DNA from: a virus
Taxonomy: Duplodnaviria; Caudoviricetes
DNA: 64,000 bases
Strand: one strand, 5' to 3'
IMG/VR virus record: IMGVR_UViG_3300048851_000184
Location: 8,388 to 72,387 of that record
In this document: positions 1-37,951 of the stretch, one piece after another
How positions within the stretch are numbered: the stretch's first letter is position 1
Layout of the letters: the number at the start of each line of letters is the position of its first letter
Made by a program: the position numbers and the translations under genes
The notes under the pieces: generated by a model
Seen by the model: only the letters and a program-made list of their open reading frames with translations
Database searches by the model: none
What the model was told of the DNA's origin: nothing

Positions 1-45
1 GATGTTGAGGGCATGACCTGGACCTGCTCGGCGCCGGAAGCATGA
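1..45 (+). CDS. 3' end of head-tail joining protein (partial)
   Basis: Reads DVEGMTWTCSAPEA*, matching the C-terminus of the 45083-45421 product. Confidence 0.8.
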   Translation, partial: DVEGMTWTCSAPEA

Positions 46-692
46 AGTTCGAGGTCGAGGTCCCCGACTTCGCCAAGGTGATGCGCGAGGCGGAGGGTAG
101 CGTCGCGCGCGCGGCCACGGTCGCCATGCGCGCCACCACCGGCGACGCGCTGCGCGAGCTGCGCGGGCAGGTGACCTCCGCCGGTCTCGGCCAGCGCCTG
201 GCGAACACCTGGCGCGGCAACGTCTACCCGAAGTCGCGCAACGGCATGAACCCGGCCGGCTACATCTACAGCCGCGCGCCCGAGATCATCGACAGCTTCG
301 TGCGAGGCGCGACCATCGTGCCGATCAACGGCAGCCGGTTCCTCGCCATTCCCACCGACAATGTGCCGCGTGTCGGCAGGCGTCGCGGCTCTACCGGCCG
401 CATGACCCCCGAACAGGTCGAGCACACGTTCAACCAGGACCTGTTCTACCAGCGTGGCAAGAATGGCCGCGTGCTCGCTTTCATCAACGCCGTGGGCGCG
501 CGTCGCGGGCGCGGGATCCGCCAGGGCACGGCACGCCGGCTAGCGCAGGGGCGTGATCTCAAGCGCGTGCTGATGTTCACCCTCGTGCCCGTCGCTCGCA
601 TGCCCAAGCTGCTCGATTTGGACGGCCCCGCCGCCCGCTGGAGCGCCTCCTACATCGCCGCCTTTACCCGCGGTCTGGAGAAGAACTGGTGA
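42..692 (+). CDS. Neck/minor tail protein (DUF6441-like)
   Basis: 216 aa basic protein after the head-tail joining gene; near-identical copy at 45418. Confidence 0.7.
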   Translation: MKFEVEVPDFAKVMREAEGSVARAATVAMRATTGDALRELRGQVTSAGLGQRLANTWRGNVYPKSRNGMNPAGYIYSRAPEIIDSFVRGATIVPINGSRFLAIPTDNVPRVGRRRGSTGRMTPEQVEHTFNQDLFYQRGKNGRVLAFINAVGARRGRGIRQGTARRLAQGRDLKRVLMFTLVPVARMPKLLDLDGPAARWSASYIAAFTRGLEKNW

Positions 693-1129
693 GCAAGCGC
701 CTTCAGGTTCTCGCCGCGGTGAAGGCGCTGGTACAGGCAGCCCTGCCGGGCGCCACAGTGCTCGGGCTGGACGGTGACGATGCCGCTCCCGCCCGCCTCC
801 CGCCGAACGGCCGTGTCGTGGTGCGCAGCGGTGAACCGGGAGATCCCGAGGTCGATCTCTGTCCACCCGTCTACCACTACGCGCACCGCATCCCGATCGA
901 GGTCAGCGCCTACGAAACTACCGCGCTCACCGGCGAGGAAGTGATCGACCAGATGATGGGTCTGATCGGCGCGGCTGTTGAGGCTGATCCGACGCTCGGC
1001 GGCCTGTGCGACTGGCTGGAGCCGACCGCGCCGAACACCGACGACATCTACGTCGAAGGCGCGAACCCTGCCCGCGGCGGCGATTTCGACCTGGTCGCCT
1101 CCTACTCGACCACATCCCCTCTCAACTGA
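689..1129 (+). CDS. Putative tail terminator/completion protein
   Basis: 146 aa, directly upstream of tail tube, EADPTLGGLCD motif; copy at 46065. Confidence 0.65.
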   Translation: MSKRLQVLAAVKALVQAALPGATVLGLDGDDAAPARLPPNGRVVVRSGEPGDPEVDLCPPVYHYAHRIPIEVSAYETTALTGEEVIDQMMGLIGAAVEADPTLGGLCDWLEPTAPNTDDIYVEGANPARGGDFDLVASYSTTSPLN

Positions 1130-1146
1130 GCCCGAAGGAACCCACC

Positions 1147-2103
1147 ATGGCCGTACAGCCTACCCGCCGGCGCGCGCTCGGCATCAACGCCGTGCAGTCG
1201 GCCGTGTTCGAAACGAGCTACGGGCAGACGCCCACGACCGGCTTCAAGCGCCTGCCGTTCGTCAGCAACGCGCTTGGCGAAGAGCGCCCGCTGATCGAGG
1301 ACGACCAACTCGGCTTCGGGCGCGAGGGGCTCGACCCGGAATATGACGTCGCGACCAACGACGGCGATGTCGTGGTGCCGATGGACACCCGCGCGTTCGG
1401 CTGGTGGCTGAAGCTGCTGCTGGGCGACGCCACCACGGCCGCAGGCGACGGCAGCCGCTATGCCCACACCTTCGTGTCGGGGAAGACGGAACTGCCGTCC
1501 GCCTCGATCGAACTCGGCAACCCGGAGATCCCGAGCTACTCGGTGAACTTCGGCGCGCTGGCCAACCAGCTGCGTGTGTCGATGGCCCGCTCGGGCATGC
1601 TCAATGCCACGATGGGCGTGATCGCGCAGGGCGAGACGCGCAAGCAGGCGCTGAGCGTCGCCGGCACCCCGGACCTGTTCCACGGCGATCGCTTCCAGCA
1701 GGCCACGGGCTCCATCAAGCGGGGTGGCGAGGTGCTGGGCAGCGTCACCGCCGCTGGCTTCACCTATTCCAATAATTACGAGAAGGTGGAGGCGATCCGG
1801 GGGGACGGCCGGATTGACGGCGCCGATCCGCTCAAGGCGATGATGACCGGCGAACTGACGATGCGCTTCGATCGCCTCGACCTCTACGATGCGTCCGTCG
1901 ACGGCACGCCGATCGATCTGGAGTTCGGGTGGAAGCGGGGCGACGCGAGCCTGCTCTTCACCCTCTCGCGCGTGTTCCTGCCGCGCGTCAAGCGCCCCAT
2001 CAGCGGCCCCGGCGGCATCCAGGCAACGTCGAATTGGCAGGCGTCCGGTGCCGGCGGCCACACGTTGACTGCTGTGCTGACCAACGACGTCGCCAGCTAC
2101 TGA
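1147..2103 (+). CDS. Major tail tube protein
   Basis: 318 aa from ATG 1147 (RBS gaagga); typical tail-tube sequence and position; copy at 46523. Confidence 0.85.
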   Translation: MAVQPTRRRALGINAVQSAVFETSYGQTPTTGFKRLPFVSNALGEERPLIEDDQLGFGREGLDPEYDVATNDGDVVVPMDTRAFGWWLKLLLGDATTAAGDGSRYAHTFVSGKTELPSASIELGNPEIPSYSVNFGALANQLRVSMARSGMLNATMGVIAQGETRKQALSVAGTPDLFHGDRFQQATGSIKRGGEVLGSVTAAGFTYSNNYEKVEAIRGDGRIDGADPLKAMMTGELTMRFDRLDLYDASVDGTPIDLEFGWKRGDASLLFTLSRVFLPRVKRPISGPGGIQATSNWQASGAGGHTLTAVLTNDVASY

Positions 2104-2123
2104 TCCTCCAGCGGAGACTGCCC

Positions 2124-2405
2124 GTGAAGAAGGAAGATACCGCCGCAGACGCGGCGACCGACAAGGCCCTGCCGCCGCTGCCGACCCATGTCGCCGCCGG
2201 TATCACGCCCGAGTTCGCCAAGCTGCGCGTCGTGGACGCGGAGACCGGCAAGCGGATCGACCACGTGCTGGAGGCGGATACCGAGAAGGGCACGGTTCGC
2301 CGCTATGCGGTCGAGCACGGCAACTTCGTGCGTGAGGGCAGCGACCTGAAGGTCATCGAGGAGGAGCGCAAGGTCCGCCTCGAGTGGATCGAGGGTGCCG
2401 GCTGA
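2124..2405 (+). CDS. Hypothetical protein between tail tube and chaperone
   Basis: 93 aa from GTG 2124 with ggaga RBS; copy at 47499. Confidence 0.75.
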   Translation: MKKEDTAADAATDKALPPLPTHVAAGITPEFAKLRVVDAETGKRIDHVLEADTEKGTVRRYAVEHGNFVREGSDLKVIEEERKVRLEWIEGAG

Positions 2406-2971
2406 TGCTCGTCGTCAGCAAGAAGGCCGACGGCCCCGCCTGGCTGTCGGTGATGGGCGCCCAGGTGCTGTTCGCCCCCATCGACCGCAAGATGATGCGC
2501 GCTGCCCGTCGTGCTGCCGTCACGTCTCTCCGCGGCGAGGATGCCGAGGAAGGGGAGGAGGCTGCTGACGCGCCAGCCGCGGAGCAGCTTGAGGAGCTCG
2601 GTGACGCCCTCAGCGTGGCCCTGATCCTGGCCGGCGCCCGCGACTGGAAAGATGTCTGCCTGATGGCGGGCCCTGACGATGAGGGCGCCGGTGAGCCACT
2701 GCCGTTTAGCCGCGAGAACCTGGAGCACGCGCTCTCCGACCCGCTCACCTTCGAGGCGTTCGACCAGGCCTACGTCATGCCCTTCGTGCTGCGGGAGCGG
2801 ACAAAAAACGTCTCCGCCGCCTCTCAGAATGGCACTGGGGAGGCGGCGATGCCGGAGAACGATACTGCCAGCTCACCTGCCAGGGGAGCGAAGGCCGGCG
2901 GTGCGAGCAGTGCCCGTACCGGATCGAAGAGCCGGACACCGCGGAAGCGGAAGGTGTCTGGGAGGTCCTGA
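2405..2971 (+). CDS. Tail assembly chaperone (gpG-like)
   Basis: 188 aa between tube and tape measure; contains in-frame slippery A-AAA-AAC. Confidence 0.8.
   Translation: MLVVSKKADGPAWLSVMGAQVLFAPIDRKMMRAARRAAVTSLRGEDAEEGEEAADAPAAEQLEELGDALSVALILAGARDWKDVCLMAGPDDEGAGEPLPFSRENLEHALSDPLTFEAFDQAYVMPFVLRERTKNVSAASQNGTGEAAMPENDTASSPARGAKAGGASSARTGSKSRTPRKRKVSGRS
2803..2809 (+). other. -1 ribosomal frameshift slippery heptamer A AAA AAC
   Basis: X-XXY-YYZ phasing correct (codons ACA AAA AAC); -1 frame open to 3153; same heptamer at 48178-48184. Confidence 0.85.
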
Positions 2972-3153
2972 CCTCCTGCGACCGACAGCTGCGGGTTGCG
3001 GGCATGACGGGCAAGCCGTTCGCCCTGGATTACGCGGCCGTGATAGCCGTCGGCTCCGCGCTCGACGCCGACATGGAGATGCTGGCGGACGTGCTGCCGG
3101 CAGCCGAAGCGGCGATCGTCGCGCAGTTCGCCGGTGATGACGGCGGGGATTGA
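2803..3153 (+). CDS. gpT-like portion of G-T frameshift fusion (-1 frame)
   Basis: -1 frame reads KKRLRRLSEWHWGGG..YCQLTC..CEQCPY..VWEVLTSCDRQLRV..GDDGGD*, ending 9 nt before the tape-measure start. Confidence 0.8.
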   Translation, partial: KKRLRRLSEWHWGGGDAGERYCQLTCQGSEGRRCEQCPYRIEEPDTAEAEGVWEVLTSCDRQLRVAGMTGKPFALDYAAVIAVGSALDADMEMLADVLPAAEAAIVAQFAGDDGGD

Positions 3154-3162
3154 GGAGGGCGC

Positions 3163-6100
3163 GTGGAAAAGTCCGTCTCGATCCGCATGGGCACGACCGG
3201 CAAGGCCGATGTCACCCGCACCTTCGACGAGATCGCCGCGTCTGGTGACGCGTCAGCGAAGCGCTGGAGCAAAGCCTACGAGCGGGCCGGCGAGGACGTA
3301 GAAGCGGCAATCCAGCGGCAGGCGAACGCTGCCGCCAAGATCGCTGCGATCGCGCCTCAGTCGCCCGTGCAGATGCGGATTGCGGATACGAACGGTACCG
3401 GGTTCGGCCAGTGGGAGGGCTCGGCCCGCCAGTCTGCCGCGGCGTTCAAGGACCTGATCGCCGCCGAAGAGCAGCTGGACGCGCGCACTCGCGCACTGGT
3501 GAGCGCGATCGATCCGGCGTTCGCGGCGCAGCAGCGCTACAATGCCGAGATGCGGGACGCGGTCGGCCTCTACGACGCCGGTCGCATCAGCCTGGATCAG
3601 TTCCTCGCTGCCGAGCAGCAGGCCGCAGCCGTGCTGGACAAGGTCGCGGGGATCACGCGCACCGCGGCGGCTGAGACGGCCGAGCTGACGGCAATGCAGG
3701 CCCGCGTCGAGGCGGCCTCAGGTACCGGATTCGGCCAGTGGGAGGGGTCGGCAAAGCGCTCCGCTCTCGCAATGGGCGAGCTGCTCGCCGAAGAGGAGAG
3801 GCTGGAGGCGCGTACGCGCGCCCTGATCGCGGCGATCGATCCCGCTGCCGCCGCCCAGATGCGCTTTGACGCCGAGATGGCCACCGCGCGCGAACTCATC
3901 AGCCGGGGCGCGATCTCGCTGGACCAGTATGTCGCCAAGCTGCGGCTTGAGCAGGACGCGCTGGACGACGCGACGGCTGCGCACATGCGCGCGAACGTGT
4001 CTACGGGCCAGCTTCGCGCAGGCGGGCAACAACTTGCCTATCAGATTGGCGACATCACGCAGCAGTGGGCGCTCAACACGCCGCTGATGGTGATCTTTGC
4101 CCAGCAGGGTGGGCAGGTGGTGCAGGCGCTGGACCTGATGACGGGCGGCGCAAATCGCTTCATCTCGTTCATGGCTGGCACCTGGGGCGCTGTGCTGCTG
4201 GGCGCAGTGATGATCATCGGGCAGATGGTCAGCCGTTCCAACGACGCGGGAAATGCGGCCGACGAACTAGCAAAGCGCCAGCAGTCGCTGTCCGGCATCA
4301 TCGACAAGACGACGGGCAGGATCAAAGAGCAGAACGCGGCCCTGCTGCAGAACGCCATCCTGGCGGCGCGCAAGGACGTGAACGAAACGCGCAAGGCGTA
4401 CATCGAGGCGCGAACTGACTTCGTAAACACAGCGGTCCCGATCCCCGGCTTGGCGCAGCTGCAGCAGCAGTTCGCCCGGGGCGAGAAGAGTGCCGCCCAG
4501 GTATCGTCTGAGCTGGCGAACCTGACCCGTGAGTTCAAATACGGGACGACGGGCTACAAGCAGGTTGAGTACCTGCAGGGGCTGCTCAAGAGTGTGGTGG
4601 ACACCGCGCGCACGGGTGTCAGCGCCCAAGCGCAGTCCCGGCTGCTGGGCGGTGCCGGGAAGCCCGGGGATGCCGCGATCGCGTTTGGCGACTTCAGCGC
4701 TGGACGGAACGAGCCGCCGAACACCGCCATCCTTGATGCCCAGGCTCGCTTGCAGGCCGGCAACCTGAGCAAGCTTCAGGAGGCGCAGGAAAAGCTCACC
4801 ATCGCCCGCGAGAAGGCAAAGGACGAACTCGACAAGGGTATCATCACCCAAGATCAGTATACGGCCCGGCTGGCGCCGCTGGAGGCGGCGGTAAACGCCG
4901 CCCGCGAGAAGACCGACCGGCACGGGCAGTCGCTCGCTCGCCAGGCCGCGGCGATGGACGTAAACGCGCAGGCATCCCTGGATCTGGCGCGGGCATATCT
5001 GGTTGGCGGGGATGCCGCGCTGCGTGCCGAGGCGGCCCGCAAGGGCCTGACCGACGCGACCCGTCGCGGGATCGACACCGACGCGCAGGTGCAGCGCCAG
5101 CTGCAAGTGATGGTCGGCGAGCAGGTGGCGAACGGCGCAAAGTCCGTTGCCCAGCTGCGCGAAGAGACCGAGGCGCGCGCCGCTGTCCGCGCCCAAGTGC
5201 TGGCTGGCACGCTGCCGGTCGAGGGTATGGCGCAGGCGTTGTCCGACGAGGCGGCGCTACGTCCCCTGCTCAAGCTCCAAACCGTCGCCCAGGGCGAGGC
5301 GTTGACCGAACTGACGAAGGTGATCGAGGCCTACCGCAAAGCGCTCGCCGACGCGCACGAGGAGGAGGCCAAGAGCAGCGCGGCCGTCGAGACCAAGGCG
5401 TCCACGGACCGCTTCGCCGAGACGATCGAGAGCATCCGAGATCTCGGTAAGGATCCGCTGCAGCGCGCCCTCGATGCCGCCCGGCGCGCGGCAGAACGCG
5501 ACGCGGATGCCAAGAAGCTGACGGGTGAGGACCGGACGGGGTTCGTGGATGCCCGGATCAACGAGGCCCGCGCCACCGAAGGGTATCGCCGAGCGCAGTT
5601 CTACGTCAGCACCGCGGACGATCAGCGGGATTCGCTGGAGATGGCGAAGCTCGACCTCTCGCTCGCGTCGGCTGGCAACGATGAGCGCGATCGCGCGGTG
5701 TCGAAGCTGGACCTGATCCTGCGCATGAAGCGCGAGGGGATCACCGCCGACAGCGAGGAAGGTCGCAAGCTGCTGGAGAACCAGGAGCACCTCGACGGGG
5801 TTGCCACCCAGGCGAAGCTCGCCGCGGCTGGCTTCCAGGAGCTGCGCGACTTCGGCAGCGACTTCGTCGACACGGTGCTGTCCGAGGATACCTGGTCGAG
5901 CTGGGGCAACGCCGGCAAGACGATCCTGAACATGCTCAAGAGCGAGTTCGTGAAGCTCGCGCTGCTGAACCCGATCAAGAACCTGCTCAACGGCGACAGG
6001 GCGCTGCCGACCCTGAGCGGCCTGGTCGGCAAGGTGGGCAGCCTGTTCGGCAAGCCGGGCAACAATGCGGCTGGCACCGAGTGGTGGTCGGGCGGAGCGA

Positions 6101-6384
6101 CGTACCTAGCCGAGCACGGTCCCGAACTCGTCAACCTGCCGCAGGGCTCCAGGGTGACACCGGCCGGCGAGACGCGGCGACTGCTCGGCGGTGGCGGGAT
6201 GATGGGAGGCGAGATGAAGCTCAAGCTGGAACTCACCCCTTCGTCCTACTTCGATGCGCGCGTAGTCTCGGTCAGCGGCCCGCTGGTGGCGCAGGGCGCA
6301 ACAGCGGCTGCGGCCGGAGGGGCGCAGATGGCTGAGGCGGAAAGCATGGCCGCTGGCGCGCGCCGTCTGGGGCGGTTCCGCTGA
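3163..6384 (+). CDS. Tail tape measure protein (1073 aa)
   Basis: Long Ala-rich helical protein after G-T; GTG start with gaggagg RBS. Confidence 0.92.
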   Translation: MEKSVSIRMGTTGKADVTRTFDEIAASGDASAKRWSKAYERAGEDVEAAIQRQANAAAKIAAIAPQSPVQMRIADTNGTGFGQWEGSARQSAAAFKDLIAAEEQLDARTRALVSAIDPAFAAQQRYNAEMRDAVGLYDAGRISLDQFLAAEQQAAAVLDKVAGITRTAAAETAELTAMQARVEAASGTGFGQWEGSAKRSALAMGELLAEEERLEARTRALIAAIDPAAAAQMRFDAEMATARELISRGAISLDQYVAKLRLEQDALDDATAAHMRANVSTGQLRAGGQQLAYQIGDITQQWALNTPLMVIFAQQGGQVVQALDLMTGGANRFISFMAGTWGAVLLGAVMIIGQMVSRSNDAGNAADELAKRQQSLSGIIDKTTGRIKEQNAALLQNAILAARKDVNETRKAYIEARTDFVNTAVPIPGLAQLQQQFARGEKSAAQVSSELANLTREFKYGTTGYKQVEYLQGLLKSVVDTARTGVSAQAQSRLLGGAGKPGDAAIAFGDFSAGRNEPPNTAILDAQARLQAGNLSKLQEAQEKLTIAREKAKDELDKGIITQDQYTARLAPLEAAVNAAREKTDRHGQSLARQAAAMDVNAQASLDLARAYLVGGDAALRAEAARKGLTDATRRGIDTDAQVQRQLQVMVGEQVANGAKSVAQLREETEARAAVRAQVLAGTLPVEGMAQALSDEAALRPLLKLQTVAQGEALTELTKVIEAYRKALADAHEEEAKSSAAVETKASTDRFAETIESIRDLGKDPLQRALDAARRAAERDADAKKLTGEDRTGFVDARINEARATEGYRRAQFYVSTADDQRDSLEMAKLDLSLASAGNDERDRAVSKLDLILRMKREGITADSEEGRKLLENQEHLDGVATQAKLAAAGFQELRDFGSDFVDTVLSEDTWSSWGNAGKTILNMLKSEFVKLALLNPIKNLLNGDRALPTLSGLVGKVGSLFGKPGNNAAGTEWWSGGATYLAEHGPELVNLPQGSRVTPAGETRRLLGGGGMMGGEMKLKLELTPSSYFDARVVSVSGPLVAQGATAAAAGGAQMAEAESMAAGARRLGRFR

Positions 6385-6986
6385 TGCCCGTCGCGATCCC
6401 GCACCTGCGGATCCGGTCGTTCGCGCTGCGCCCGCGCCTGTTCAGCGGTGAGCAGGAGGGCGCACTCGGTGGGCCGGACCTGCCGATCCCGAGGCCAGGC
6501 GATCGGTTCGCGGTGGACGTGACGACGACGCAGTTCCGCAACGACGCCGAAGGGCGGCTAATGGCGGCTGCGCTGTTCGAGGCGAGCAACAGCAGTGCGA
6601 TCATGCGGATCGTGCAGCCGAACCGCAGCGGCCGCTCCCCCGGCTATGCGGTGGCGGTCGACGGCACAGACCAGGGCGGCATGACGCTGTCCCTGCGTGG
6701 GCTCCAGGCAGGTGCCTCGCTTACGCGCGGCAACTTCTTCAGCATCGTCCACGGCGGGCAGCGCTACGTGCACATGATCGCCTGCGCCGGACAGCTGGTG
6801 GTGCCGGTGAGCGGCAAGGTTGCACTGCCGATCTGGCCCATGCTGCGGTTTCTCACCGTCGACGGCGAGCCCGCTGAGTTCGTGGCCCCGATGATCGAGG
6901 GCAAGCTGCTGGGGTTCGACAAGGGCGCTAGCTTCGTGCGGGCGAAAACCGAGCCGCTGTCTTTCAGCATCCAGGAGCGGGCATGA
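6384..6986 (+). CDS. Putative distal tail protein
   Basis: 200 aa right after tape measure; homolog at 51438. Confidence 0.65.
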   Translation: MPVAIPHLRIRSFALRPRLFSGEQEGALGGPDLPIPRPGDRFAVDVTTTQFRNDAEGRLMAAALFEASNSSAIMRIVQPNRSGRSPGYAVAVDGTDQGGMTLSLRGLQAGASLTRGNFFSIVHGGQRYVHMIACAGQLVVPVSGKVALPIWPMLRFLTVDGEPAEFVAPMIEGKLLGFDKGASFVRAKTEPLSFSIQERA

Positions 6987-7624
6987 CCTTTCGCCTGACC
7001 CCTCCGATGTCTGCGAAGCTGCGGACTGGCCGCTACCCATTTGCGCCGCTCGTGCGGGTGGAGTTGCCGGACTACACGCTCTGCCATTTGGTCGGCTCTG
7101 CCGAGGTGAAGTTCAACGGGAAGAAGTTCGTCGGCCGAGATCCACGTTTCGGCGTTCTGGTGGCGGCGAGCAACCTGAAGGATGGCGTCGCCAACGAAGC
7201 GCCCGACTGGTCGCTGACTTTCGTTCCACCGGACGAGGTCGCCGCCTCCGAACTTGCTGCGGCGACCGCGCAGGGAGGCGAGGTTGGCGGCTGGCTTGGG
7301 CTGATCGACCCGGCGACCGGGCAGCTACTGCCGGAGCCCATCCAGCTATTTGGGGGCGAGCTGGACGTGCCGAGGATCCGCGTAGGCAAGGGCGCGCGCA
7401 CGCTGGAGTGGCGCTGCGCATCCTCGCTTGAGCCCTTCCATGACGAGGAGAAGGGCGCACGGCTTTCGGACAGCTGGCACCAGCTGGTTTGGCCGGGAGA
7501 GACCGGCTGCGCGAACATGACGGGCATCGACAAGACGTCCATGTGGGGAGTCGAGAAGCCGCCCTCCACCGTGCGCGTCACCGGCGGCAGCCTGAACCCG
7601 TCGTTCCTGGGGAACCTGGCCTGA
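6983..7624 (+). CDS. Minor tail (tail-tip) protein
   Basis: 213 aa in tail-tip gene order; homolog at 52040. Confidence 0.65.
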   Translation: MTFRLTPPMSAKLRTGRYPFAPLVRVELPDYTLCHLVGSAEVKFNGKKFVGRDPRFGVLVAASNLKDGVANEAPDWSLTFVPPDEVAASELAAATAQGGEVGGWLGLIDPATGQLLPEPIQLFGGELDVPRIRVGKGARTLEWRCASSLEPFHDEEKGARLSDSWHQLVWPGETGCANMTGIDKTSMWGVEKPPSTVRVTGGSLNPSFLGNLA

Positions 7625-8043
7625 TGAGCGGACTTCTCCGGCGCCAGCAGGCCGCGCAGGCAGCGCTAGACCGGTTCAAGGGGGAGCCTCTCGTCTACGG
7701 AAAGAACGACTGCGTTCGCCTGGCGGCGTTCGTCCTGCGCAAGATGGGGCACCGGCCGCAGCTGGCGAAGGCCGGCAGCTACAGCACCGCGCTGGGCGCC
7801 GCGCGCGCATTGCAGCGTGCCGGGTTTGAGGATCTGGCGGCCGCCGTCGATGCACTGGGTCTGCCGCGGATCGCGCCCGCAGCCGCCTGGGTGGCGGACA
7901 TGGTGCTGCTGCCAGCCGAGGGCCCCTTCGGCGGCGCCCTGAGCGTCGCCGTCGGGAACGGCCGGGTGCTCGGCTATCACGAAGACGTGGACGGCGCAGA
8001 CATCCTGCAGCCGGTTCAATATCTCGCCGCCTGGCGGGTCTGA
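7624..8043 (+). CDS. NlpC/P60-like tail assembly protein (gpK-like)
   Basis: 139 aa with YGKNDC motif; homolog at 52681. Confidence 0.7.
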   Translation: MSGLLRRQQAAQAALDRFKGEPLVYGKNDCVRLAAFVLRKMGHRPQLAKAGSYSTALGAARALQRAGFEDLAAAVDALGLPRIAPAAAWVADMVLLPAEGPFGGALSVAVGNGRVLGYHEDVDGADILQPVQYLAAWRV

Positions 8044-8052
8044 GAGGCGCGC

Positions 8053-10644: not shown

Positions 10645-10685
10645 GGCGCGCCGAGCCCAACGCTTCGATACAAAGGGAACCGCAT

Positions 10686-13622: not shown

Positions 13623-13679
13623 GGCGCAGGCACCCACACGTTCGCGACGCCCGGCGCGCTCCGGGCAGGGAGACCTCCC

Positions 13680-14126
13680 ATGAACCCACTCTGGGGAATG
13701 TTCGCGGTGCTGGTCGGCACCTTCCTGCCCCTATCCCTGACGCTCAGGGCGGCTGCGCAGGTGTTCCACGATCAGCACTATGGGCTGTGGCACCCGGTCA
13801 ACGTCTACCGCTGGATCAAGATCGCGCTGATCGTGCCCGTGCTGGCGCTGATCAGTCCGGCCGGCGTGTACCTGATGTTCGGCCTCGGCGACGCCGACAT
13901 GACCGAGCGGATCGTCACCTTCCTCGCCTCGGCGCGCGGAGTGATCCTGGTGCTGGGTCTCCTGATTGCCGCCTTCATCGTCGACAAGGAGCGGCCGCGC
14001 ATGATCGACCACCTGACGCGGCAGCCGACCTCGCGCGAGCACCGAACCCGGATCCAGTTCCGCCACGACACCATGATCGTGCTCATCATTCTGGGGCTCG
14101 CCCTGATCTCGGCCCCGTTTGTCTGA
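13680..14126 (+). CDS. Multi-pass membrane protein of lysis cassette
   Basis: 148 aa with about four hydrophobic segments; same protein sequence at 59149. Confidence 0.7.
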   Translation: MNPLWGMFAVLVGTFLPLSLTLRAAAQVFHDQHYGLWHPVNVYRWIKIALIVPVLALISPAGVYLMFGLGDADMTERIVTFLASARGVILVLGLLIAAFIVDKERPRMIDHLTRQPTSREHRTRIQFRHDTMIVLIILGLALISAPFV

Positions 14127-14491
14127 TGGCCGGACAGAACGTGGTCGCTGCGGCCGTGGGGCCGGCCGCAGTCGCACTGCTTGGCCTCAACATCCCGATC
14201 GTGCCGGCGCTGTTCGGCGTCGCTGGCGTCGTGCTGGGCCGCTACATCGCGCAGTCGGTGCGTCGTGAAGGGGAGGAGCGGGTCACCAGTCGCGCGAACC
14301 TGGCGGTGACGATGCTGTTCGCGCTGGGCATGATCGCCGTCGCGTCCGAGCGCGAGCTCACGCCTTTCCGAGCCCTGGGCGTGGGTGCGTCGGCCGGCTT
14401 CCTCGGGCTCGGCCTTCTCGAATTCGTCGCCTCGCAGTTCTCTGAGCGAGTGCGCGGCGCGATCGACGGCTTCTTCAACCCGCGGAAGTGA
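14126..14491 (+). CDS. Putative holin
   Basis: 121 aa, about three TM segments, basic C-terminus, upstream of endolysin; copy at 59595. Confidence 0.7.
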   Translation: MAGQNVVAAAVGPAAVALLGLNIPIVPALFGVAGVVLGRYIAQSVRREGEERVTSRANLAVTMLFALGMIAVASERELTPFRALGVGASAGFLGLGLLEFVASQFSERVRGAIDGFFNPRK

Positions 14492-14519
14492 CGGGGCCGC
14501 AGAACTCCTGCGGCGGCCG

Positions 14520-16039: not shown

Positions 16040-16056
16040 CAACTGCGCCCGGATCA

Positions 16057-16719: not shown

Positions 16720-16732
16720 TGCCGCTATCCTG

Positions 16733-17812: not shown

Positions 17813-17848
17813 GGGGGTGATGTAGGGGCGGCCGCCGGTGAGGCTAGA

Positions 17849-18219: not shown

Positions 18220-18221
18220 AG

Positions 18222-29462: not shown

Positions 29463-30170
29463 TTAGAGGTCCCTCGCAAAACGAATAACCCGACCGCCGA
29501 TTATCAGTTCGTCGGCGTCGACTTCGTAGTTGTCGATCGTCGGGTTGTCGGAAATCACGAGCACTCGCCCTCCCTTCAACGGGCGTAGTCGTTTGATCGC
29601 GGCACCGCCGTTGATTGATACGGCCCACACCCGATCAGCCTGGTTCAGGCGAGTCTGCGTGCTATCGATCCACACAAGGTCGTTGCTGTTGAGCGTTGGG
29701 TACATGCTGTCCCCCACGCCCCGAGCCAGCCGCAGCCGGTGCGGTGGGGTTCGCGTGAAACTACGGACGTAGCCAATGTCGAAAGTAACAGGCTCTTCCT
29801 CGATGTAGTCGTCCACCGTTGCTCCGGGACCCATCGGCAGAGACAGGTCTAGCTTGATGATCGGGACCGTCTCGTTGCCGTCTACCGTCCGAATGTTTGG
29901 TTGATCCGGGGCGTGCCTCGGCGCGCCGTCCTCTCTCGGATGGACAAGGTCAACGAGGTATTCTGGCTCGAATCCGAGCACCTGCTCCATAGCACGTAGG
30001 ACCTTGGGCCCGGGCCGTTTCACCTTCCCGCGCTCTACATCCCACAACGGCTTTCCGGTGGTTCCGAGCATCTTCCGCAGTTGCGAATCGAAGTGGTCGC
30101 GGGTGTGCGGCGCGCGGTCGATGGCAGCCGCGAGTGCCGTCTGAAGGGGGCTGCGTTCGTCTGTTGCCAT
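29463..30170 (-). CDS. cI: CI-like repressor (HTH plus S24 autopeptidase)
   Basis: GDSMYP catalytic Ser and AAIKRL Lys, N-terminal HTH, divergent from cro-like gene. Confidence 0.92.
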   Translation of the reverse strand: MATDERSPLQTALAAAIDRAPHTRDHFDSQLRKMLGTTGKPLWDVERGKVKRPGPKVLRAMEQVLGFEPEYLVDLVHPREDGAPRHAPDQPNIRTVDGNETVPIIKLDLSLPMGPGATVDDYIEEEPVTFDIGYVRSFTRTPPHRLRLARGVGDSMYPTLNSNDLVWIDSTQTRLNQADRVWAVSINGGAAIKRLRPLKGGRVLVISDNPTIDNYEVDADELIIGGRVIRFARDL

Positions 30171-30207
30171 GTAGGCCGTGTCCCACACCGCCGCCGCCCG
30201 TGCTATA

Positions 30208-30261
30208 CTAGGGTTCACCCTACTTATTCCAGTTGACGGTAGGGCGCGCCCTACGTACAGT
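30208..30261 (+). promoter_or_regulatory. PR-like promoter with two operators
   Basis: TTGACG (30233-30238) N17 TACAGT (30256-30261); palindromes CTAGGGTTCACCCTAC (30208-30223) and GTAGGGCGCGCCCTAC (30239-30254). Confidence 0.88.
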
Positions 30262-31125: not shown

Positions 31126-31722
31126 ATGGACATGACGAACAGCGCGGGGGCGGCGATGGCCGCTTCCGCGACAGAGAAACCGCGTGCGGTCGGATCGGCA
31201 GACGCCGTCCTCGCCGTGCTGACCGCAGCGGCCGAGGTGGGGGCGCCGTGCCCATCCAACCTTGACCTGTCGCATATGCTCGGCGCGTCCACGCGCGGCG
31301 CCGGTGGCGGAGTGATCCGACGGCTGTTGGACCGCGGCCTCATTAGGGTGGACGGCCGCGGTACGTCCCGGGTGATCACCATCGTCGCGAGCGGCAAGTC
31401 CACCGGGGTGACCGCTCTGAAGGCCTCGCGGGTGACCTCCGGCAAGGCACGCCCGTGGACCGCTGACGAGATCGCGATCGTGGAGCGCGAGGTGCGCGCC
31501 GGGAAGAGCGACAGCGAGATCGGTGCGCTCCTGGGCCGCAACGCGAACAGCGTGTGGTGCCGTGCGAACCCGGTGCGGCGTGATCTGCGCGAGGACGCCC
31601 CGCCGGTCGCAGAGCCCCCCGCGGCCGCGCAGGCCATGTGCCACTATTGCGGCTCACGCATCGCGCCCGACGTCACCATCTCCTGCCGGGCGTGCAAGCC
31701 CCTGCGGAGCGCGGGAGCGTGA
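31126..31722 (+). CDS. Winged-HTH plus GcrA-like HTH plus zinc-finger protein
   Basis: CPSNLDL..LG; PWTADE..G.SDSEIGALLGR; CHYC..CRAC. Confidence 0.65.
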   Translation: MDMTNSAGAAMAASATEKPRAVGSADAVLAVLTAAAEVGAPCPSNLDLSHMLGASTRGAGGGVIRRLLDRGLIRVDGRGTSRVITIVASGKSTGVTALKASRVTSGKARPWTADEIAIVEREVRAGKSDSEIGALLGRNANSVWCRANPVRRDLREDAPPVAEPPAAAQAMCHYCGSRIAPDVTISCRACKPLRSAGA

Positions 31723-32933
31723 GCGTCCGGATCCTGATCGGGGACGTGCGCGAGCAGCTGGCGAGGCTGCCGGCGGACTCCGTCGATTGCTGCGTCACGT
31801 CGCCCCCGTACTGGGGCCTGCGCGACTACGGCGTCGACGGTCAGATCGGGCTTGAGCCGACGCTGGGCGAGCACCTGGCGGTCATGGTCGACGTGTTCGA
31901 GGCGGTGAAGCGCGTGCTGAAGCCGGAGGGGACGCTCTGGCTCAACTACGGCGACTGCTACGCGACGAAGCCGAGCGGGCGCAGCGCCGCGGATACGAAG
32001 GCGGCGGGCAACGACGATCGCACGTTCCGCGACAAGCCGTTTTCTACCATCGGGCCGGTCTACGTCGAGATGAGCGATGAGGCCCGCGCGGCGCGCGGCA
32101 ACAAGATGAGCGGCGCGACGGATGGTGTCCGTACCGCACCGCCGCCAGCCGGACGCATCGCCGCAGGCGGCATCCTGAAGCCCAAAGACCTGTGCATGAT
32201 CCCGAACCGGCTGGCGATCGCGCTGCAGGATGCCGGCTGGTGGGTCCGCTCGGAGATCGTGTGGGGCAAGCCGAACCCGATGCCGGACAGCAGCGGACGC
32301 TATCGACCGTCGACCGCACACGAGAAGATCTGGCTGCTGACCAAGTCGGCGAAAAGCCACTACGACGCGCTGGCGGTCCGTATGCCGCGCGCGCAGGACG
32401 AGAACAGCAACGGCTATCCCGGGAGCACGGGTGACGGCGTCCGCCGCCGCACGACGGTGGGTAACCAGCGCTACAAGATGCCCGACGGGTGGGATACGAG
32501 CGCAGGCGGCCACGGCAGCCGCCATCGTGCGGGTCGTGAGGCTGGACAGCGCGACGCAGCAGCCGCTCCGGAGGACGGTCGCCGCTTCCTTCGCAACTAT
32601 GAGCCCGACCTGTCCGGCATCATCCCGCCCGAGGTCTGGCAGATCGCGACGGCGCCGTTCAGCGAGGCGCACTTCGCCACATTCCCGCCCGCGCTGGTCG
32701 CCCCGTGCATCATGGCGGGCTGCCCGGCTGGTGGCGTGGTGCTCGATCCCTTCGGCGGCGCGGGCACTACCGGCCTCGTGGCCGACCGGCTCCAGCGCGA
32801 CGCGATTCTGATCGAGCTGAACCCCGAATACGCCGCGATCGCGGAGCGCCGATTGGCATCCGACCGCGGCGCCCTGCTCGACGCGATGGAGGCCGAGAAG
32901 CCCCTCCCGTTCCTTGAAGGAGAAGCAGCATGA
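31719..32933 (+). CDS. Orphan DNA methyltransferase (N4-C/N6-A, beta class)
   Basis: VTSPPY catalytic motif precedes VLDPFGGAGTTG SAM-binding motif. Confidence 0.93.
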   Translation: MSVRILIGDVREQLARLPADSVDCCVTSPPYWGLRDYGVDGQIGLEPTLGEHLAVMVDVFEAVKRVLKPEGTLWLNYGDCYATKPSGRSAADTKAAGNDDRTFRDKPFSTIGPVYVEMSDEARAARGNKMSGATDGVRTAPPPAGRIAAGGILKPKDLCMIPNRLAIALQDAGWWVRSEIVWGKPNPMPDSSGRYRPSTAHEKIWLLTKSAKSHYDALAVRMPRAQDENSNGYPGSTGDGVRRRTTVGNQRYKMPDGWDTSAGGHGSRHRAGREAGQRDAAAAPEDGRRFLRNYEPDLSGIIPPEVWQIATAPFSEAHFATFPPALVAPCIMAGCPAGGVVLDPFGGAGTTGLVADRLQRDAILIELNPEYAAIAERRLASDRGALLDAMEAEKPLPFLEGEAA

Positions 32934-34069
32934 CGAGCGTGCAGTTTGAGCGCGTCGCATTGGCGCGCGCGCTTTCGATCGCGTCCAAGGTTGCGGGCTG
33001 GGCCGCGCCTGACTGGTTCCCCCCGCGCGCCGAGGGCATGAAGGCGATGCCCGGGCCGCCGCTGGTGGAGATCGTCGCGGCTGGAGGTCTCGCGACCATC
33101 CGGTCGGCCAACTTCCAGCGGGAGATCGTGGTCGAGGTGCCCGCCATGGGTGAGTGCCAGGCGATCGTCCCTGCGGCGATGCTCGGCGGCTGGGTGCATC
33201 GCGCGACCGGCGCCACCGTGCACATGCAGCTGACGGACGCTGAGGCGCTGTTCAACTGCGGCCGTCAGCGCATGACGCTCCGTAGTTCGCGGCGCCCCTA
33301 TGTCCCGGCTCGTACGCCCGCCGAGGTGCTGCGCGCACCGCTGTCGAAGGTGCGCAGCGGGTTCTCTGCCACGGTGGCGGTGCCGAAGGAGGGCGGCGAC
33401 CAGGTCGCCATGGGCGGGGTGCACATCCGCGGCACCGCCGAGGCCTTGGGCTTCTTCTCGACCGAGCACGGCCGGGCGCACGAGCAGATCGCGCCCGCGG
33501 CTGGTGGCGTCGCGCTGATCGTGCCGATCGAGGCCGTGAAGCTCTTTCTCGTGACGTTCGACGCCATGGAAGGGGAGGTGAGCATCCACGCGGACGGGCG
33601 CTCGGTCGCCTTTGCGGCTGGCGACATCCGCATCACCTCCGCGCTGATCGATGCGTCGCCCCTCAATGCCGAGCAGCAGTTCCGGACGGAGCGGAGCAAT
33701 GTCCTGCGCGCGACTGCCGACACGCTGCTCGCACACATCGAACTGGCGACCACGGTTTCCGACCCCCGACATCGCGAGTTCCAGCTTCGGCTTGGCGCCG
33801 CATGCGAGGTCCACGCGGCCAGCCAAGGCGGCAAGGACGACGCCACCGTCGCACTGGTGGCGAACTGGCTCGGCTCGCCCATGCGCGTCACCTTCGCGCT
33901 CCGCCCCGTGCGCGACGCGCTCCTGCTGTTCGGCAAGGAGCAGATCGAGTGGCGCATGGCCGGTCCGCTGGAGCCGACTGTCATCTCGTCGGTCGCCCAG
34001 CCCGACCTGCGCGCCCTCGTCGCACCGTTCCTCCCCACCACCGACCAGAAGCAGGCGAAGGCAGCATGA
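32930..34069 (+). CDS. Divergent DNA polymerase III beta-clamp-like protein (379 aa)
   Basis: Full DnaN-like length and recognisable pattern (ERVALARAL.., IVPAAML.., ALFNCGRQRMTL, F..RPVRDAL). Confidence 0.7.
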   Translation: MTSVQFERVALARALSIASKVAGWAAPDWFPPRAEGMKAMPGPPLVEIVAAGGLATIRSANFQREIVVEVPAMGECQAIVPAAMLGGWVHRATGATVHMQLTDAEALFNCGRQRMTLRSSRRPYVPARTPAEVLRAPLSKVRSGFSATVAVPKEGGDQVAMGGVHIRGTAEALGFFSTEHGRAHEQIAPAAGGVALIVPIEAVKLFLVTFDAMEGEVSIHADGRSVAFAAGDIRITSALIDASPLNAEQQFRTERSNVLRATADTLLAHIELATTVSDPRHREFQLRLGAACEVHAASQGGKDDATVALVANWLGSPMRVTFALRPVRDALLLFGKEQIEWRMAGPLEPTVISSVAQPDLRALVAPFLPTTDQKQAKAA

Positions 34070-34230
34070 ACTTCCGGAAGAAGGGCGACCTGATGGAGCT
34101 CGCAACTGCCATCGAGAACGGCGACAAGGTGGCGGCGCGCGCTGCCCTTGATCGGGTTTTCGCCAGCAACGTCGAAAAGACGGAGTGCATCGCGCAGGCG
34201 CGCGCCCTTGCGCGCCGGCGGACAGCATGA
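34066..34230 (+). CDS. Small hypothetical protein (54 aa)
   Basis: Coupled ORF. Confidence 0.5.
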   Translation: MNFRKKGDLMELATAIENGDKVAARAALDRVFASNVEKTECIAQARALARRRTA

Positions 34231-34484
34231 GCGAGCCGGAAAAGCGGCACGGCTCGCTGAGCGAGCGCCTGATGCGCGTCACCCTGCTCCAGAAGGCGCA
34301 GGAGTTCGTCGGCCAGGAGCGGCTGGCGGAGGGCATGGGCCTCGCCAGCCGCTCGCTCCGCGCGAAGCTGTCGATCGACCGGGGGCTGAGCGACGCCGAC
34401 CTGTTGGGCGCCGCATCTGCGGTCGAGGCGCGCGCGGCCGAACTGACGGCGTTCGCCGCGAAAATCCGGGAGCGGCTGGCGTGA
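34227..34484 (+). CDS. Small HTH-like protein (85 aa)
   Basis: GQERLAEGMGLASRSLRAKL HTH pattern. Confidence 0.6.
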   Translation: MSEPEKRHGSLSERLMRVTLLQKAQEFVGQERLAEGMGLASRSLRAKLSIDRGLSDADLLGAASAVEARAAELTAFAAKIRERLA

Positions 34485-34506
34485 AGCCGACGAACAGGGA
34501 TCCCGC

Positions 34507-34872
34507 GTGAAGCTTCCGCCGCTCCTTGAACGGCCGGTACAGCGCGCGCTGATCGACAGCTTCGCGTGGCAGGGCTGCCATGCCGTGCACGTGCCGAACG
34601 GCAGCCACCTCGCTGGCGGCCCGCTGTCGCGCGCCAAGCAGGTGGCCGCGCTGAAGGCGGACGGCATGCGCCCCGGCTTTCCCGACCTCACGGTGCTCGA
34701 CCAGCGCAAGCCGCGCGTCGGCTTCGTCGAGGTGAAGCGGGAAGGGTGGGACGACCTTGATCCCGACCAGGAGTGGTGGCGCGACGAGATCCAGCGGCTG
34801 GACCTGCCGTGGGCGCTTGCGAACCGTCCGGACCAGGCGCCAGAGATCCTGCGCGTGTGGGGGTGGCGATGA
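34507..34872 (+). CDS. VRR-NUC (PD-(D/E)XK) nuclease
   Basis: HVPNG, GMRPGFPDL, FVEVK, Q..W motifs. Confidence 0.88.
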   Translation: MKLPPLLERPVQRALIDSFAWQGCHAVHVPNGSHLAGGPLSRAKQVAALKADGMRPGFPDLTVLDQRKPRVGFVEVKREGWDDLDPDQEWWRDEIQRLDLPWALANRPDQAPEILRVWGWR

Positions 34873-35639
34873 GCGCGACCTCCTGCGGCTTCGACCTGAT
34901 CCGGGCCGCCTATGCTGCGGCTGGGCTGGACGAGCACGAGCGTGCCGTCCTTGTGCTGCTCGCCTTCATGGCAAACGATGATCGCCAGGCGTGGCCCTCT
35001 ATCGCCTACATCGTCGAGAAGACGGGCAAGGGCGAGCGCACCGTTCAACGTGCGATCAAGCGACTGGTGGAGGGTGCACACCTGTCGCGGCGCCAGCGTC
35101 GACACGACACCGCTGTCTATGTTGTGCACCCGCAGGCTATCCCGGAAGCCGTCAACGATCCCAAACCCGTCAGTGGGACGGGCGTCGGACTGACGGGCGT
35201 CAGCGGTACGCCCGTCAGTGAGGACGTTAAGACCCGTCCCACAGACACCCTAATAGCCAAGAACAACCAACCCTCTCCGGATGCTTCGCATCCTGCGAGG
35301 TCCCGCAAGGCGCCAGCGGATCAGCGTGCGCAGCGGCTGGCTGACGATTGGGCACCGGAAGCTTTTCCCCAAGGCAGTGCAGCGGCCGACGCAACCGCCG
35401 GTTGGCCGCCGGGGATGCTCGACCGGGAACTGTCCAAGTTCCGCGACTACTTCCGGGCCCAGCCCGGAGCGAAGGGTCGAAAGACCGACTGGCAAGCAAC
35501 CTTCCGAAACTGGGTGATCCGGGCAGATGAGCAGCAGCAACGAAATCGCAGTCCGCGAGGACATTGGTCGGACCGGAGCCGCTATCGCGACCCGCTCCTC
35601 GATCGCTATGTTGGAGGCGGAGATCCCGGCCTGGGTTGA
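34869..35639 (+). CDS. Phage replication initiator (N-terminal winged HTH)
   Basis: VLVLLAFMAND..AWPSI..I..KTG..ERTVQRAI..L and C-terminal KTDWQATFRNW. Confidence 0.85.
   Translation: MSATSCGFDLIRAAYAAAGLDEHERAVLVLLAFMANDDRQAWPSIAYIVEKTGKGERTVQRAIKRLVEGAHLSRRQRRHDTAVYVVHPQAIPEAVNDPKPVSGTGVGLTGVSGTPVSEDVKTRPTDTLIAKNNQPSPDASHPARSRKAPADQRAQRLADDWAPEAFPQGSAAADATAGWPPGMLDRELSKFRDYFRAQPGAKGRKTDWQATFRNWVIRADEQQQRNRSPRGHWSDRSRYRDPLLDRYVGGGDPGLG
35166..35270. repeat. Putative replication origin iterons inside the initiator gene
   Basis: CCCGTCAGTG x2, GACGGGCGTC x2, inverted pair 35189-35200/35208-35219, then A-rich tract. Confidence 0.65.
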
Positions 35640-36189: not shown

Positions 36190-36779
36190 TGGGTGGAAGG
36201 CCTCCGCGCGGCTTGGCCGCTGGCGATCCGCGCCCGGAACTCGAGACGGCCGATGGGGTCGGCGGACGGCTGCGCGTCGTCGAGCTGCCGAAGCTCTGTA
36301 ACAGCCAGGCGGCGATGACCGCTGCATATCGGGCGTCAATGATCCTGATCGAGCAAGGCTGGATGCGGTACCCGGCCGCGCGTTGGGACCAGCCGGCCAT
36401 TGCGGTGATGGACGGCGCAACCTGCGTAGCCGGCGTCAGCTTCAGTGAGGATCGAGACGAGCGGGCGTTCAGTGTGGACTTTGCCTTCTCGGACCCGGCC
36501 CATCCGGTTGCGTTCACGCTCCTCCTTCAGCGCATCCGGAGCAAGGTGGTGGGCGGTGACTTCGACGAGGTCCGGTTCGCTTGCCACGAAGGCAACGAGC
36601 CGATGCGCCGGGCTGTCAACATCCTGGGCGCCCGGGTCTTCAGCCACAGCTATCGGATGCCGGTGGCGGCCTTGTCGCGGTCCTCGCGCCCGCCGCCGCC
36701 CGTGGCACAGAGGTCTGCCCCAGGGGAGTGGGACGTGCGGGGCGAGGCGGATCAACGTAACAAGCGGGGGTGGAAGTGA
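36186..36779 (+). CDS. Degenerate GNAT-fold protein
   Basis: AIAVMDG..VAGVSF, VDFAFSDP, CHEGNEPMRRAV..LG. Confidence 0.5.
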   Translation: MMGGRPPRGLAAGDPRPELETADGVGGRLRVVELPKLCNSQAAMTAAYRASMILIEQGWMRYPAARWDQPAIAVMDGATCVAGVSFSEDRDERAFSVDFAFSDPAHPVAFTLLLQRIRSKVVGGDFDEVRFACHEGNEPMRRAVNILGARVFSHSYRMPVAALSRSSRPPPPVAQRSAPGEWDVRGEADQRNKRGWK

Positions 36780-37387
36780 TGGCGTTGGAGAACGGGGAGC
36801 GCGCACGCGAGGAGCGCTGGTGCATCCTGCGGACGCACGGCGGCAGAACCCTGCCACTTGCCCGCTCGCTCGCGGACGCGGGCATTCTTGCGTGGACGCC
36901 GGTGGAGCATGTGCGCCGGCGCATCCCGCGATCGAGGGAGAAGGAGCGAGAGTTCCGACCCGTTCCCTACCTTCCGACCTATGTGTTCGCCCCGGCCGCT
37001 GACCTGGGCGAACTTCGGCGTCTGGAGGTGGCGGAGGAAAGCGGGCATCCAGCCTTCTCCATCTTCCGCCACTACGGCGCATCGGTGCTGGTGCCGGAGG
37101 CTGAGATCGCATCCCTGCGCCAGCGGGAGGCCGAGAGCAGGCGCCGCATGGAGCAGAGCCTGGACGCTCAGGAGCGGCATGGACGACCGCTGAGGGAGCG
37201 CGCCGTGCCCTATGCGCGCGGCTCTGAGGTTGCCGTGGAGGAGGGCGCATTCGCCGGCCTGTCGGGCATTGTCGAGGAGAGCGACGGCCGGCACACGCTG
37301 CTCCTGTTCGGCACCCACCTGCGCGTGACGATTGAGACTTCCACATTGCGGGGGAATGCTGTAGCAGAGCCGTCATCTGCTGACTGA
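36779..37387 (+). CDS. NusG-family late antiterminator (NGN plus KOW)
   Basis: WCILRT..G..L, P.LPTYVF and G.EV.V.EGAFAGL.G.V. Confidence 0.85.
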   Translation: MALENGERAREERWCILRTHGGRTLPLARSLADAGILAWTPVEHVRRRIPRSREKEREFRPVPYLPTYVFAPAADLGELRRLEVAEESGHPAFSIFRHYGASVLVPEAEIASLRQREAESRRRMEQSLDAQERHGRPLRERAVPYARGSEVAVEEGAFAGLSGIVEESDGRHTLLLFGTHLRVTIETSTLRGNAVAEPSSAD

Positions 37388-37555
37388 TCAGCCCAGACGA
37401 GCGATGCGCCGGCGTAAGCGCCACTGCCCTCGTCATCATGACCGACCGGTGAGGGCGCCTATGCGGCGCTTGGCCGGGAGTCCGGCAGGCTACCTGAAAT
37501 CCAAGACGCGAGCCGGTTTAGCGGCTCGCCTGCGCAGCGCGGTCTGGAGGTGCGG

Positions 37556-37780
37556 ATGTCGGGCACGTCGCTCACCCCGTCAGATCGGCTGCGCAACCTT
37601 GCGGGTGAGATCGAGACGCTAGCGGACGCCATGGAGCAGCCCTCGCGCACGACTGCCCGCGCGGACATGCTGATCGCCGAGTGCGAGCGTATCGCCGCCG
37701 ACGTGCGTGCGGTGGTGCGGGGCAGGGCCCGGCCTTCGGCTCGGCCGCTGTGGCATCGTGGAGGACAGGCGGCTTGGTAA
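37556..37780 (+). CDS. Small helical protein (74 aa)
   Basis: ggagg RBS. Confidence 0.6.
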   Translation: MSGTSLTPSDRLRNLAGEIETLADAMEQPSRTTARADMLIAECERIAADVRAVVRGRARPSARPLWHRGGQAAW

Positions 37781-37905
37781 GCGCCGCGATCGCGGGCTCG
37801 GAGTATTTCAGCCGTGAGGCCTAACCCTCGCACCTAGACCGATTTTCGACCCTCCGACCTTCGGCGCGACCCATCATCCCACATGGTGGGACCGCCCCCC
37901 CCCTT

Positions 37906-37951
37906 GGGTCCTTCCGGCGCCGCAGGGTAATACGGGGGGCAAAGGCGCAAC
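37906..37951 (+). other. Predicted cos site (cosQ plus cosN)
   Basis: GGGTCCT (37906-37912) then TACG followed by GGGGGCAAAGGC (37935-37946), just upstream of the terminase genes as in lambda. Confidence 0.7.

Follow-up and report, generated by a model that had tools for sequence, protein, structure and literature searches.

Tandem lambda-like prophages in two adjacent tRNA genes of a Sphingomonas, with same-polarity cos sites about one genome apart

The locus and its parent scaffold

The stretch of 64,000 nucleotides analysed here (the window) corresponds to bases 8388-72387 of the 72,387-bp IMG/VR provirus record IMGVR_UViG_3300048851_000184. It contains the right part of one lambda-like prophage, designated A, and most of a second one, designated B, with a short piece of Sphingomonas DNA encoding hspQ between them (Table 1). 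An earlier reading of the window (the original prediction) had proposed that the DNA between the cos packaging sites of the two prophages may be packaged in situ as a hybrid phage; the anatomy of the locus is described below and this proposal is weighed against it.

The record begins and ends exactly at start codons (ATG at position 1 and CAT, the reverse complement of ATG, at position 72387), and its limits are gene-boundary cuts made by the provirus predictor, neither biological nor assembly ends. All five IMG/VR proviruses examined (G000-G004) start with ATG and finish with CAT. The parent scaffold, JGI 3300048858 Ga0496068_000625 of 100,478 bp, was recovered by exact-protein look-ups, and both prophages are whole on it, each with attL, attR and an integrase. 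The provirus cut had left out 19 kb of prophage A, and the probable cause of the cut at that place is a block of host-like genes in A. Protein look-ups indicated one further large contig with the same neighbours, the sequence of which was not seen. The host is known from metagenomes only.

Table 1. Features of prophages A and B and of the host DNA between them (window positions unless stated otherwise)
Feature	Position	Strand	Evidence or remark
attL of A	record 7986-8040 of the parent scaffold		left of the window
Right arm of A	1-19592	+	tail terminator, tube, tape measure, distal tail, J-like proteins, 978-aa protein, small accessory ORFs (open reading frames); PHROG
Lysozyme-like gene of A	14969-15493	+	PHROG
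attR of A	19593-19647	+	55-bp direct repeat: tRNA-Ala(CGC) 3' part (anticodon stem through CCA end) and 6 nt more
hspQ, host gene	19727-20107	-	YccV-like hemimethylated-DNA-binding protein; Pfam PF08755, E 7.7e-30
tRNA-Ser(CGA), host	20239-20328	+	ARAGORN, Rfam
attL core of B	20314-20328		last 15 nt of tRNA-Ser(CGA)
Integrase of B	20503-22065	+	P4-type tyrosine recombinase; Pfam Arm-DNA-bind_3, Phage_int_M, Phage_integrase
CI/LexA-type repressor of B	29463-30218	-	S24 peptidase; Pfam PF00717, E 1.7e-13
Early-right genes of B	31719-35276	+	N6/N4 methyltransferase, clamp-like protein, VRR-NUC nuclease, HTH_36 protein; PHROG, Pfam, parent-scaffold gene calls
Q-like late antiterminator of B	36770-37387	+	just before cos; phrog_6386 transcription antiterminator, E 4e-19
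cos of B, left and middle parts	37906-37951	+	cosQ-like GGGTCCT at 37906-37912, then cosN-like core
cosB-like region of B, putative TerS-binding region	37952-38044	+	B type, GCCGCCGCC motif; inverted repeat 37985-37998 / 38028-38041
TerS of B	38045-38560	+	phrog_57
TerL of B, gpA family	38499-40508	+	Pfam GpA_ATPase, GpA_nuclease
Portal (lambda family) and fused protease-capsid gene of B	40711-44371	+	Pfam Phage_portal_2, Peptidase_S78, Phage_capsid_4
Tail and right-end ORFs of B	45083-64000	+	collinear homology to A
GH108 endolysin of B	60038-60688	+	Pfam
attR core of B	record 99983-99997 of the parent scaffold (window 64417-64431)		417 bp past the window; a host MFS gene follows

Integration sites and their occupancy in related strains

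Prophage A (47,173 bp) is inserted in the tRNA-Ala(CGC) gene and is bounded by 55-bp att repeats, and prophage B is inserted in the tRNA-Ser(CGA) gene and is bounded by 15-bp repeats; the two tRNA genes are adjacent and co-oriented. B measures 44,103 bp between its att cores, in agreement with the original estimate of more than 43.6 kb. The 55 bp of the right repeat of A match exactly the intact tRNA-Ala gene at its left end (L191:107-182). Both prophages carry an integrase and direct att repeats duplicating the 3' end of the tRNA gene, as do tRNA-integrating prophages with tyrosine recombinases. The host DNA between them is 736 bp long (19593-20328). The hspQ and tRNA-Ser genes predicted for this interval are there, whereas its length had been underestimated (about 600 bp) and the 3' fragment of tRNA-Ala(CGC) had not been mentioned.

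A repeat for the right end of B was sought inside the record and was not found there; it lies beyond the window on the parent scaffold. A sub-threshold Rfam match to tmRNA (transfer-messenger RNA) at 19541-19641 was rejected, since the nearest genome has tRNA-Ala(CGC) at this place and an intact gene of this kind lies at attL of A. The weak match is explained by the Ala acceptor stem that both RNAs have in common.

The protein search with HspQ gave matches in Sphingomonas genomes. In the nearest one, S. desiccabilis, the order is tRNA-Ala(CGC)-hspQ-tRNA-Ser without a prophage, and the window is homologous to it only across 19594-20328. Each of the 20 scanned Sphingomonas-type loci, drawn from 80 kept Sphingomonadaceae hspQ loci, has tRNA-Ser(CGA) next to hspQ. 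Neither a tandem arrangement nor an A-like end near hspQ was found in any of these 80, and a scan of metagenomes for hspQ loci returned only distant ones (at most 85 % identity). An integrase-like match near tRNA-Ser(CGA) was present in 7 of the 80 loci (L010, L039, L045, L048, L053, L067 and L072). Five of these matches lie beside the tRNA gene and are 43-67 % identical to the integrase of B, as does a weaker one in L053 (30 %); that in L067 is weak (32 %), about 2 kb farther away and on the opposite strand. The tRNA-Ser(CGA) site seems to be a hot spot of repeated integration. One locus titled Arthrobacter sp. TPD3018 (L018, NZ_QDFQ01000007.1) has an hspQ of the Sphingomonas type (84 % identical), likewise next to tRNA-Ser; this assembly probably bears a wrong label or contains contaminating DNA.

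Contigs from sister samples that encode an identical HspQ protein display all four states of occupancy. Both sites are empty in L189 (same sample) and L190, the tRNA-Ala site alone is occupied in L185 and L188, the tRNA-Ser site alone in L187, and both are occupied on the parent scaffold. On empty-site contigs the sequence skips each prophage, and the junctions coincide exactly with the att cores. The occupants of single sites are other members of the family, 77-93 % identical to A or B, and the islands of these other contigs differ by 0.8-6 % from that of the parent scaffold, none being identical. Two adjacent tRNA integration sites are documented in this way as independently occupied in closely related strains.

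Relationship between the two prophages

Comparison of the window with itself revealed 16 families of direct repeats with spacings of 45.0-45.5 kb. As had been stated originally, the ORF at 42-692 is matched by that at 45418-46068 with a spacing of 45,376 bp, and A and B share their orientation. The repeats are 77-95 % identical, so A and B are two related elements and not one element assembled twice. Exact runs of at least 50 bp shared by A and B number 35, the longest being 107 bp. When the whole record was compared with itself (blastn), collinear homology was seen to extend beyond the left edge of the window, where contig 970-1098 (129 bp) matches window 37898-38026 and the terminase genes then follow.

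The head region of A (contig 3395-8010) is without DNA homology to B; both prophages encode a lambda-family portal and a fused protease-capsid protein, the protease being of the ClpP type in A and of the S78 type in B. The early regions differ as well. That of A encodes a phrog_1 integrase, an HTH_3 repressor, a primase and DnaB, and both its repressor and its replication genes are unrelated to those of B (BLASTP E of 2.8 for the repressors). The HTH_36 protein of B is likely its replication initiator. Lysis genes follow the tail genes in both prophages.

The cos sites

The lambda-like cos that had been predicted in B at about 37935 was found: GGGTCCT is followed by a cosN-like core, with ATACG and then GGGGGCAAAGGC at 37930-37946 and terS directly downstream. 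A 32-nt core of this island recurs identically in A at contig 994-1025. When the regions upstream of terS were aligned, unrelated left flanks were followed by an island of about 65 nt including the identical core, by about 200 diverged nucleotides and then by sequences of 87-97 % identity. Some 110 nt separate the conserved island from the terS start in both prophages.

The core motif lies at contig 997 (window position -7390) and at window 37925. The cos of A had been expected about 7.4 kb to the left of the window, recognisable by GGGTCCT and a matching cosN, and at about 45 kb from the cos of B; the identical core is where it was anticipated, and the separation amounts to 45,315 bp, a value between the sizes of B and A. 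The two sites have the same polarity, and their distance is within the packaging range of the capsid. This spacing is no independent coincidence, since cos sites about one genome apart follow automatically for any tandem pair of collinear prophages that resemble each other in size.

The comparison with the lambda junction (J02459), from GGGTCCT through TACGGGG, gave a score of 34 versus 19.6 +/- 3.7 for shuffled sequences, and the distance from GGGTCCT to the predicted nick is 29 nt in B and 30 nt in lambda. A set of 32 cos regions was assembled from 29 IMG/VR stretches (found by a search with a 19-nt core), A, B and MT835566. In 31 of the 32, GGGTCCT (in one case a GGGTCCT-like sequence) stands 28-29 nt before the predicted nick, and variable bases separate cosQ from the core and follow directly upon it. 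This pattern of conservation is the one expected of a cosQ-cosN site. By analogy with lambda, the 12-nt cohesive end of B is predicted at 37935-37946, with nicks at 37934/37946. A search for a cultured relative with mapped ends found none, and TerL identities did not exceed 38 % apart from one unannotated metagenomic record. Two Logan contigs that end at the cos core were considered as physical virion ends and rejected; assembly graphs of k=31 break at the 32 nt common to A and B, which is the probable cause of both contig ends.

A cos site is now defined for an uncharacterised family of lambda-like Sphingomonas phages, in which the cosQ heptamer of lambda is kept at nearly the same spacing.

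Two further observations concern cos sites within the family. The IMG/VR stretches 3300049989_000036 (L207) and 3300049979_000071 (L208) share about 100 % identity over 1 kb leftward of the cosN core and 53-75 % rightward of it, L207 having the A-type cosB and TerS and L208 the B-type, so that the mosaic breakpoint falls exactly at cos. This favours cos as a point of exchange, and cohesive-end joining in mixed concatemers would leave the same mark. In the provirus 2911878434_000005 of an isolate genome (L198 and L202), two same-strand cos cores are placed 4,024 bp apart, at 19324 and 23348. Behind the first (L198) come an A-type TerS and a TerL that breaks off after its first 120 residues; about 3 kb further on, the second (L202) is accompanied by a different type of TerS. 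The arrangement looks like a remnant of a packaging module beside a complete one.

Terminases and packaging specificity

In both prophages terS (phrog_57) is directly upstream of terL and overlaps it, with cos just ahead, and TerL shows matches to PF05876 (E ~1e-54) and PF20454 (E ~1e-72). On this evidence both A and B are predicted to package from a lambda-type cos (cosQ-cosN-cosB) with a gpA-family terminase.

The TerS proteins of A and B share almost nothing in their first ~60 amino acids and are near-identical in the last ~105. The TerL proteins (L001:1551-3572 and window 38499-40508) are 95 % identical across 620 amino acids and diverge in the last ~50, and the divergence begins exactly at the unrelated portal and protease-capsid modules. 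This looks like a swap of the whole head module with a boundary inside terL.

Past the cos core the members of the family have one of three types of DNA: TTCTTCCTCC (A-type), GCCGCCGCC (B-type) or TTCATCATCAT. The DNA type is paired with one TerS N-terminal motif in all 29 typed members (18, 8 and 3), with no mixed cases. The pairing is suggestive of distinct packaging specificities, and falls short of proof, as the two elements are adjacent and hence linked; TerS presumably binds the cosB-like region. At least three linked cosB/TerS specificity types can be distinguished in the family. The A-type cosB adjoins an A-type TerS and the cosQ/cosN core is common to both prophages, a pairing consistent with competence for cos-to-cos packaging.

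In lambda and phage 21 the specificity of initiation is set by cosB together with the N-terminus of Nu1, cross-packaging occurring at about 1e-4, and for termination in lambda cosQ, cosN and I2 suffice, whatever the type of cosB (PMC4669245). Since cosB and the N-terminus of TerS differ between A and B in the manner of lambda and 21, initiation at the cos of A probably needs A's own terminase. The A-type terminase alone would probably start at the cos of A yet could finish at that of B.

The predicted hybrid and the alternatives to it

We consider it probable that the locus comprises two intact, heteroimmune, mosaic-related siphophage prophages of the lambda type that integrated independently; it would be a case of ordinary polylysogeny with an unusual geometry, structurally able to undergo cos-to-cos packaging.

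Several points weigh against this view. The tandem linkage depends on one metagenome scaffold joined via the 736-bp island. Induction of A is an assumption, and no S24 domain was found in its repressor. A dyad-symmetry test failed to place the nicks, even in lambda, and the cohesive ends were set by the lambda analogy only. Among the IMG/VR contigs there was no phage genome with an internal hspQ, only proviruses cut at hspQ, which also speaks against the locus as a generator of hybrids, and the relatives G001 and G002 gave no match to hspQ inside them.

If cos-to-cos packaging takes place, A terminase, whose A-type TerS N-terminus fits the A-type cosB, would start at the cos of A, translocate rightwards and stop at cosQ/cosN of B, because termination of the lambda kind is independent of cosB. 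The segment would fit the capsid of A, its 45,315 bp being intermediate between the two genome sizes. The product would be a 45.3-kb plaque-former with the structural and lysis genes of A, hspQ, tRNA-Ser and the integrase, immunity, replication and Q-like genes of B. The inventory that the original prediction gave for this interval is borne out, as A terS through lysis, hspQ, tRNA-Ser and the B int, repressor, replication genes and Q-like gene are all present. After circularisation the hybrid would be self-consistent, with the Q-like gene of B and its upstream region followed by cosQ/cosN and then by the cosB and terS of A.

The claim that this would be a complete hybrid genome holds for lytic growth only. 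The hybrid would carry attR of A and attL of B and no attP for either integrase, and it should therefore integrate poorly, as do the analogous lambda gal/bio att hybrids, or only through the 0.7 kb of host homology. It is also expected to be rare, since initiation needs an unexcised A with its late genes on and termination needs an integrated B. The proposal that the locus is a standing source of hybrids and a specialised transducer is partly supported: the predictions made at the level of sequence held, and the function is a proposal. It is weakened further in that the geometry is an automatic outcome of tandem insertion and the mechanism belongs to classical lambda genetics (PMC4669245).

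Hybrids of A and B could arise mainly by homologous recombination, either between co-induced replicating genomes or by RecA-dependent loop-out across the 16-kb direct repeat, with no real role for cos-to-cos packaging. This would be the simpler source of hybrids, and we give it close to an even chance, though slightly below it. The exact runs described above lie inside collinear blocks of 77-95 % identity, the family is mosaic (G001, for instance, has an A-like head together with an integrase and early region like those of B), and module boundaries occur inside terS and at the C-terminus of TerL. On the other hand, a divergence of about 12 % reduces RecA recombination, loop-out from the chromosome removes hspQ and tRNA-Ser(CGA), which may be costly, and recombinants between A and B themselves were not encountered. 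The family as a whole is a mosaic in active recombination and integrates at two neighbouring tRNA genes.

The original prediction in its full form, by which the locus regularly yields hybrid virions through in-situ packaging between the two cos sites and so carries out specialised transduction of hspQ and tRNA-Ser, is unlikely in our judgement. All structural prerequisites are present, there is a precedent in lambda, and the breakpoint between L207 and L208 at the cosN core is the footprint expected from cos joining unlike genomes; the same breakpoint would arise just as well if cohesive ends were joined, or genomes recombined, in mixed infections. The model further demands that both prophages stay unexcised while the late genes of A are expressed, its product would have no attP, the IMG/VR contigs include no phage with internal hspQ, and related strains display clean, independent site-specific occupancy.

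An assembly chimera, in which A-only and B-only strains were joined via the shared host island, is very unlikely: the scaffold is metagenomic, the island exceeds the length of short reads, and the same sample series contains A-site-only, B-site-only and empty variants, but none of the other islands is identical to that of the parent scaffold, the prophages found at single sites are other members of the family, with no more than 77-93 % identity to A or B, the scaffold is unbroken over 100 kb, and the look-ups pointed to the further large contig with these neighbours mentioned above.

The reading of the locus as two independently integrated, heteroimmune prophages is retained. A wider proposal, that in nature this and similar loci release hybrids able to form plaques, packaged in situ from cos to cos over two different att sites, is improbable. 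Were it true, it would provide a cos-phage counterpart of lateral transduction, moving hspQ and tRNA-Ser and creating new combinations of head and immunity in one step, and the L207/L208 breakpoint would be an evolutionary footprint of such packaging. Should hybrid packaging occur at this locus, the tandem-dilysogen effect known from the laboratory would work in wild polylysogens, and cos phages would have a defined route for carrying host DNA and for swapping structural and immunity modules together.

Other genes of the prophages

Between the replication and late genes of A (L191:13378-18648) there is a block of host-like genes encoding a TIR-like protein, a Ros/MucR regulator, a PAS-HWE histidine kinase, a Crp-like regulator, DUF6894 and baeRF/Host_attach proteins, which may be lysogenic-conversion or defence cargo. 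In the right arm of B, past the lysis genes, a gene for SRAP (SOS-response-associated peptidase) was found at window 61686-62654, and related genes occupy the same place in sister prophages.

Comparison with known systems

The closest parallel is provided by the lambda tandem heteroimmune dilysogens that the Feiss laboratory used for in-situ (helper) packaging; such packaging of tandem prophages gives about 1-4 virions per cell (PMC4669245). As in those strains, two chromosomal cos sites of the same polarity lie one genome apart, the terminase is of the gpA type and the layout is cosQ-cosN-cosB; initiation specificity would reside in cosB and the TerS N-terminus, and the shared cosQ/cosN would permit termination downstream. 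Unlike the lambda constructs, the A/B pair is natural and is known here from sequence. The two prophages occupy two att sites, so that attR of A, host DNA and attL of B stand in the middle in place of attP, and the predicted product carries host genes and is without attP.

The relation between A and B resembles that of lambda to phage 21 (and N15), with cosN/cosQ-like cores identical or nearly so, divergent cosB and TerS N-terminal domains, and a conserved TerS C-terminus and TerL. It differs in the alphaproteobacterial host and in the presence of at least three cosB/TerS types, and cross-specificity is here a prediction.

CTXphi is another case of hybrid virions from tandem prophages, according to the passages of PMC4246890 and PMC13492144 that cite Davis and Waldor 2000. 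As described there, a hybrid phage genome originates from two adjacent integrated elements without excision, as proposed for A and B, but the mechanism is different, and hybrid formation in CTXphi is obligatory and demonstrated.

Movement of prophage-flanking host DNA into virions would be shared with specialised transduction (lambda gal/bio) and with lateral transduction (S. aureus 80alpha, P22). Lambda gal/bio phages arise through aberrant excision. Lateral transduction is in-situ packaging before or without excision by a pac/headful mechanism, which needs no second site, whereas at the A/B locus the second cos would set the end of the packaged DNA. With a gpA cos-type terminase and a conserved cos island, the locus does not belong with lateral transduction. 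It is a natural example of the textbook lambda arrangement and not a new kind of system.

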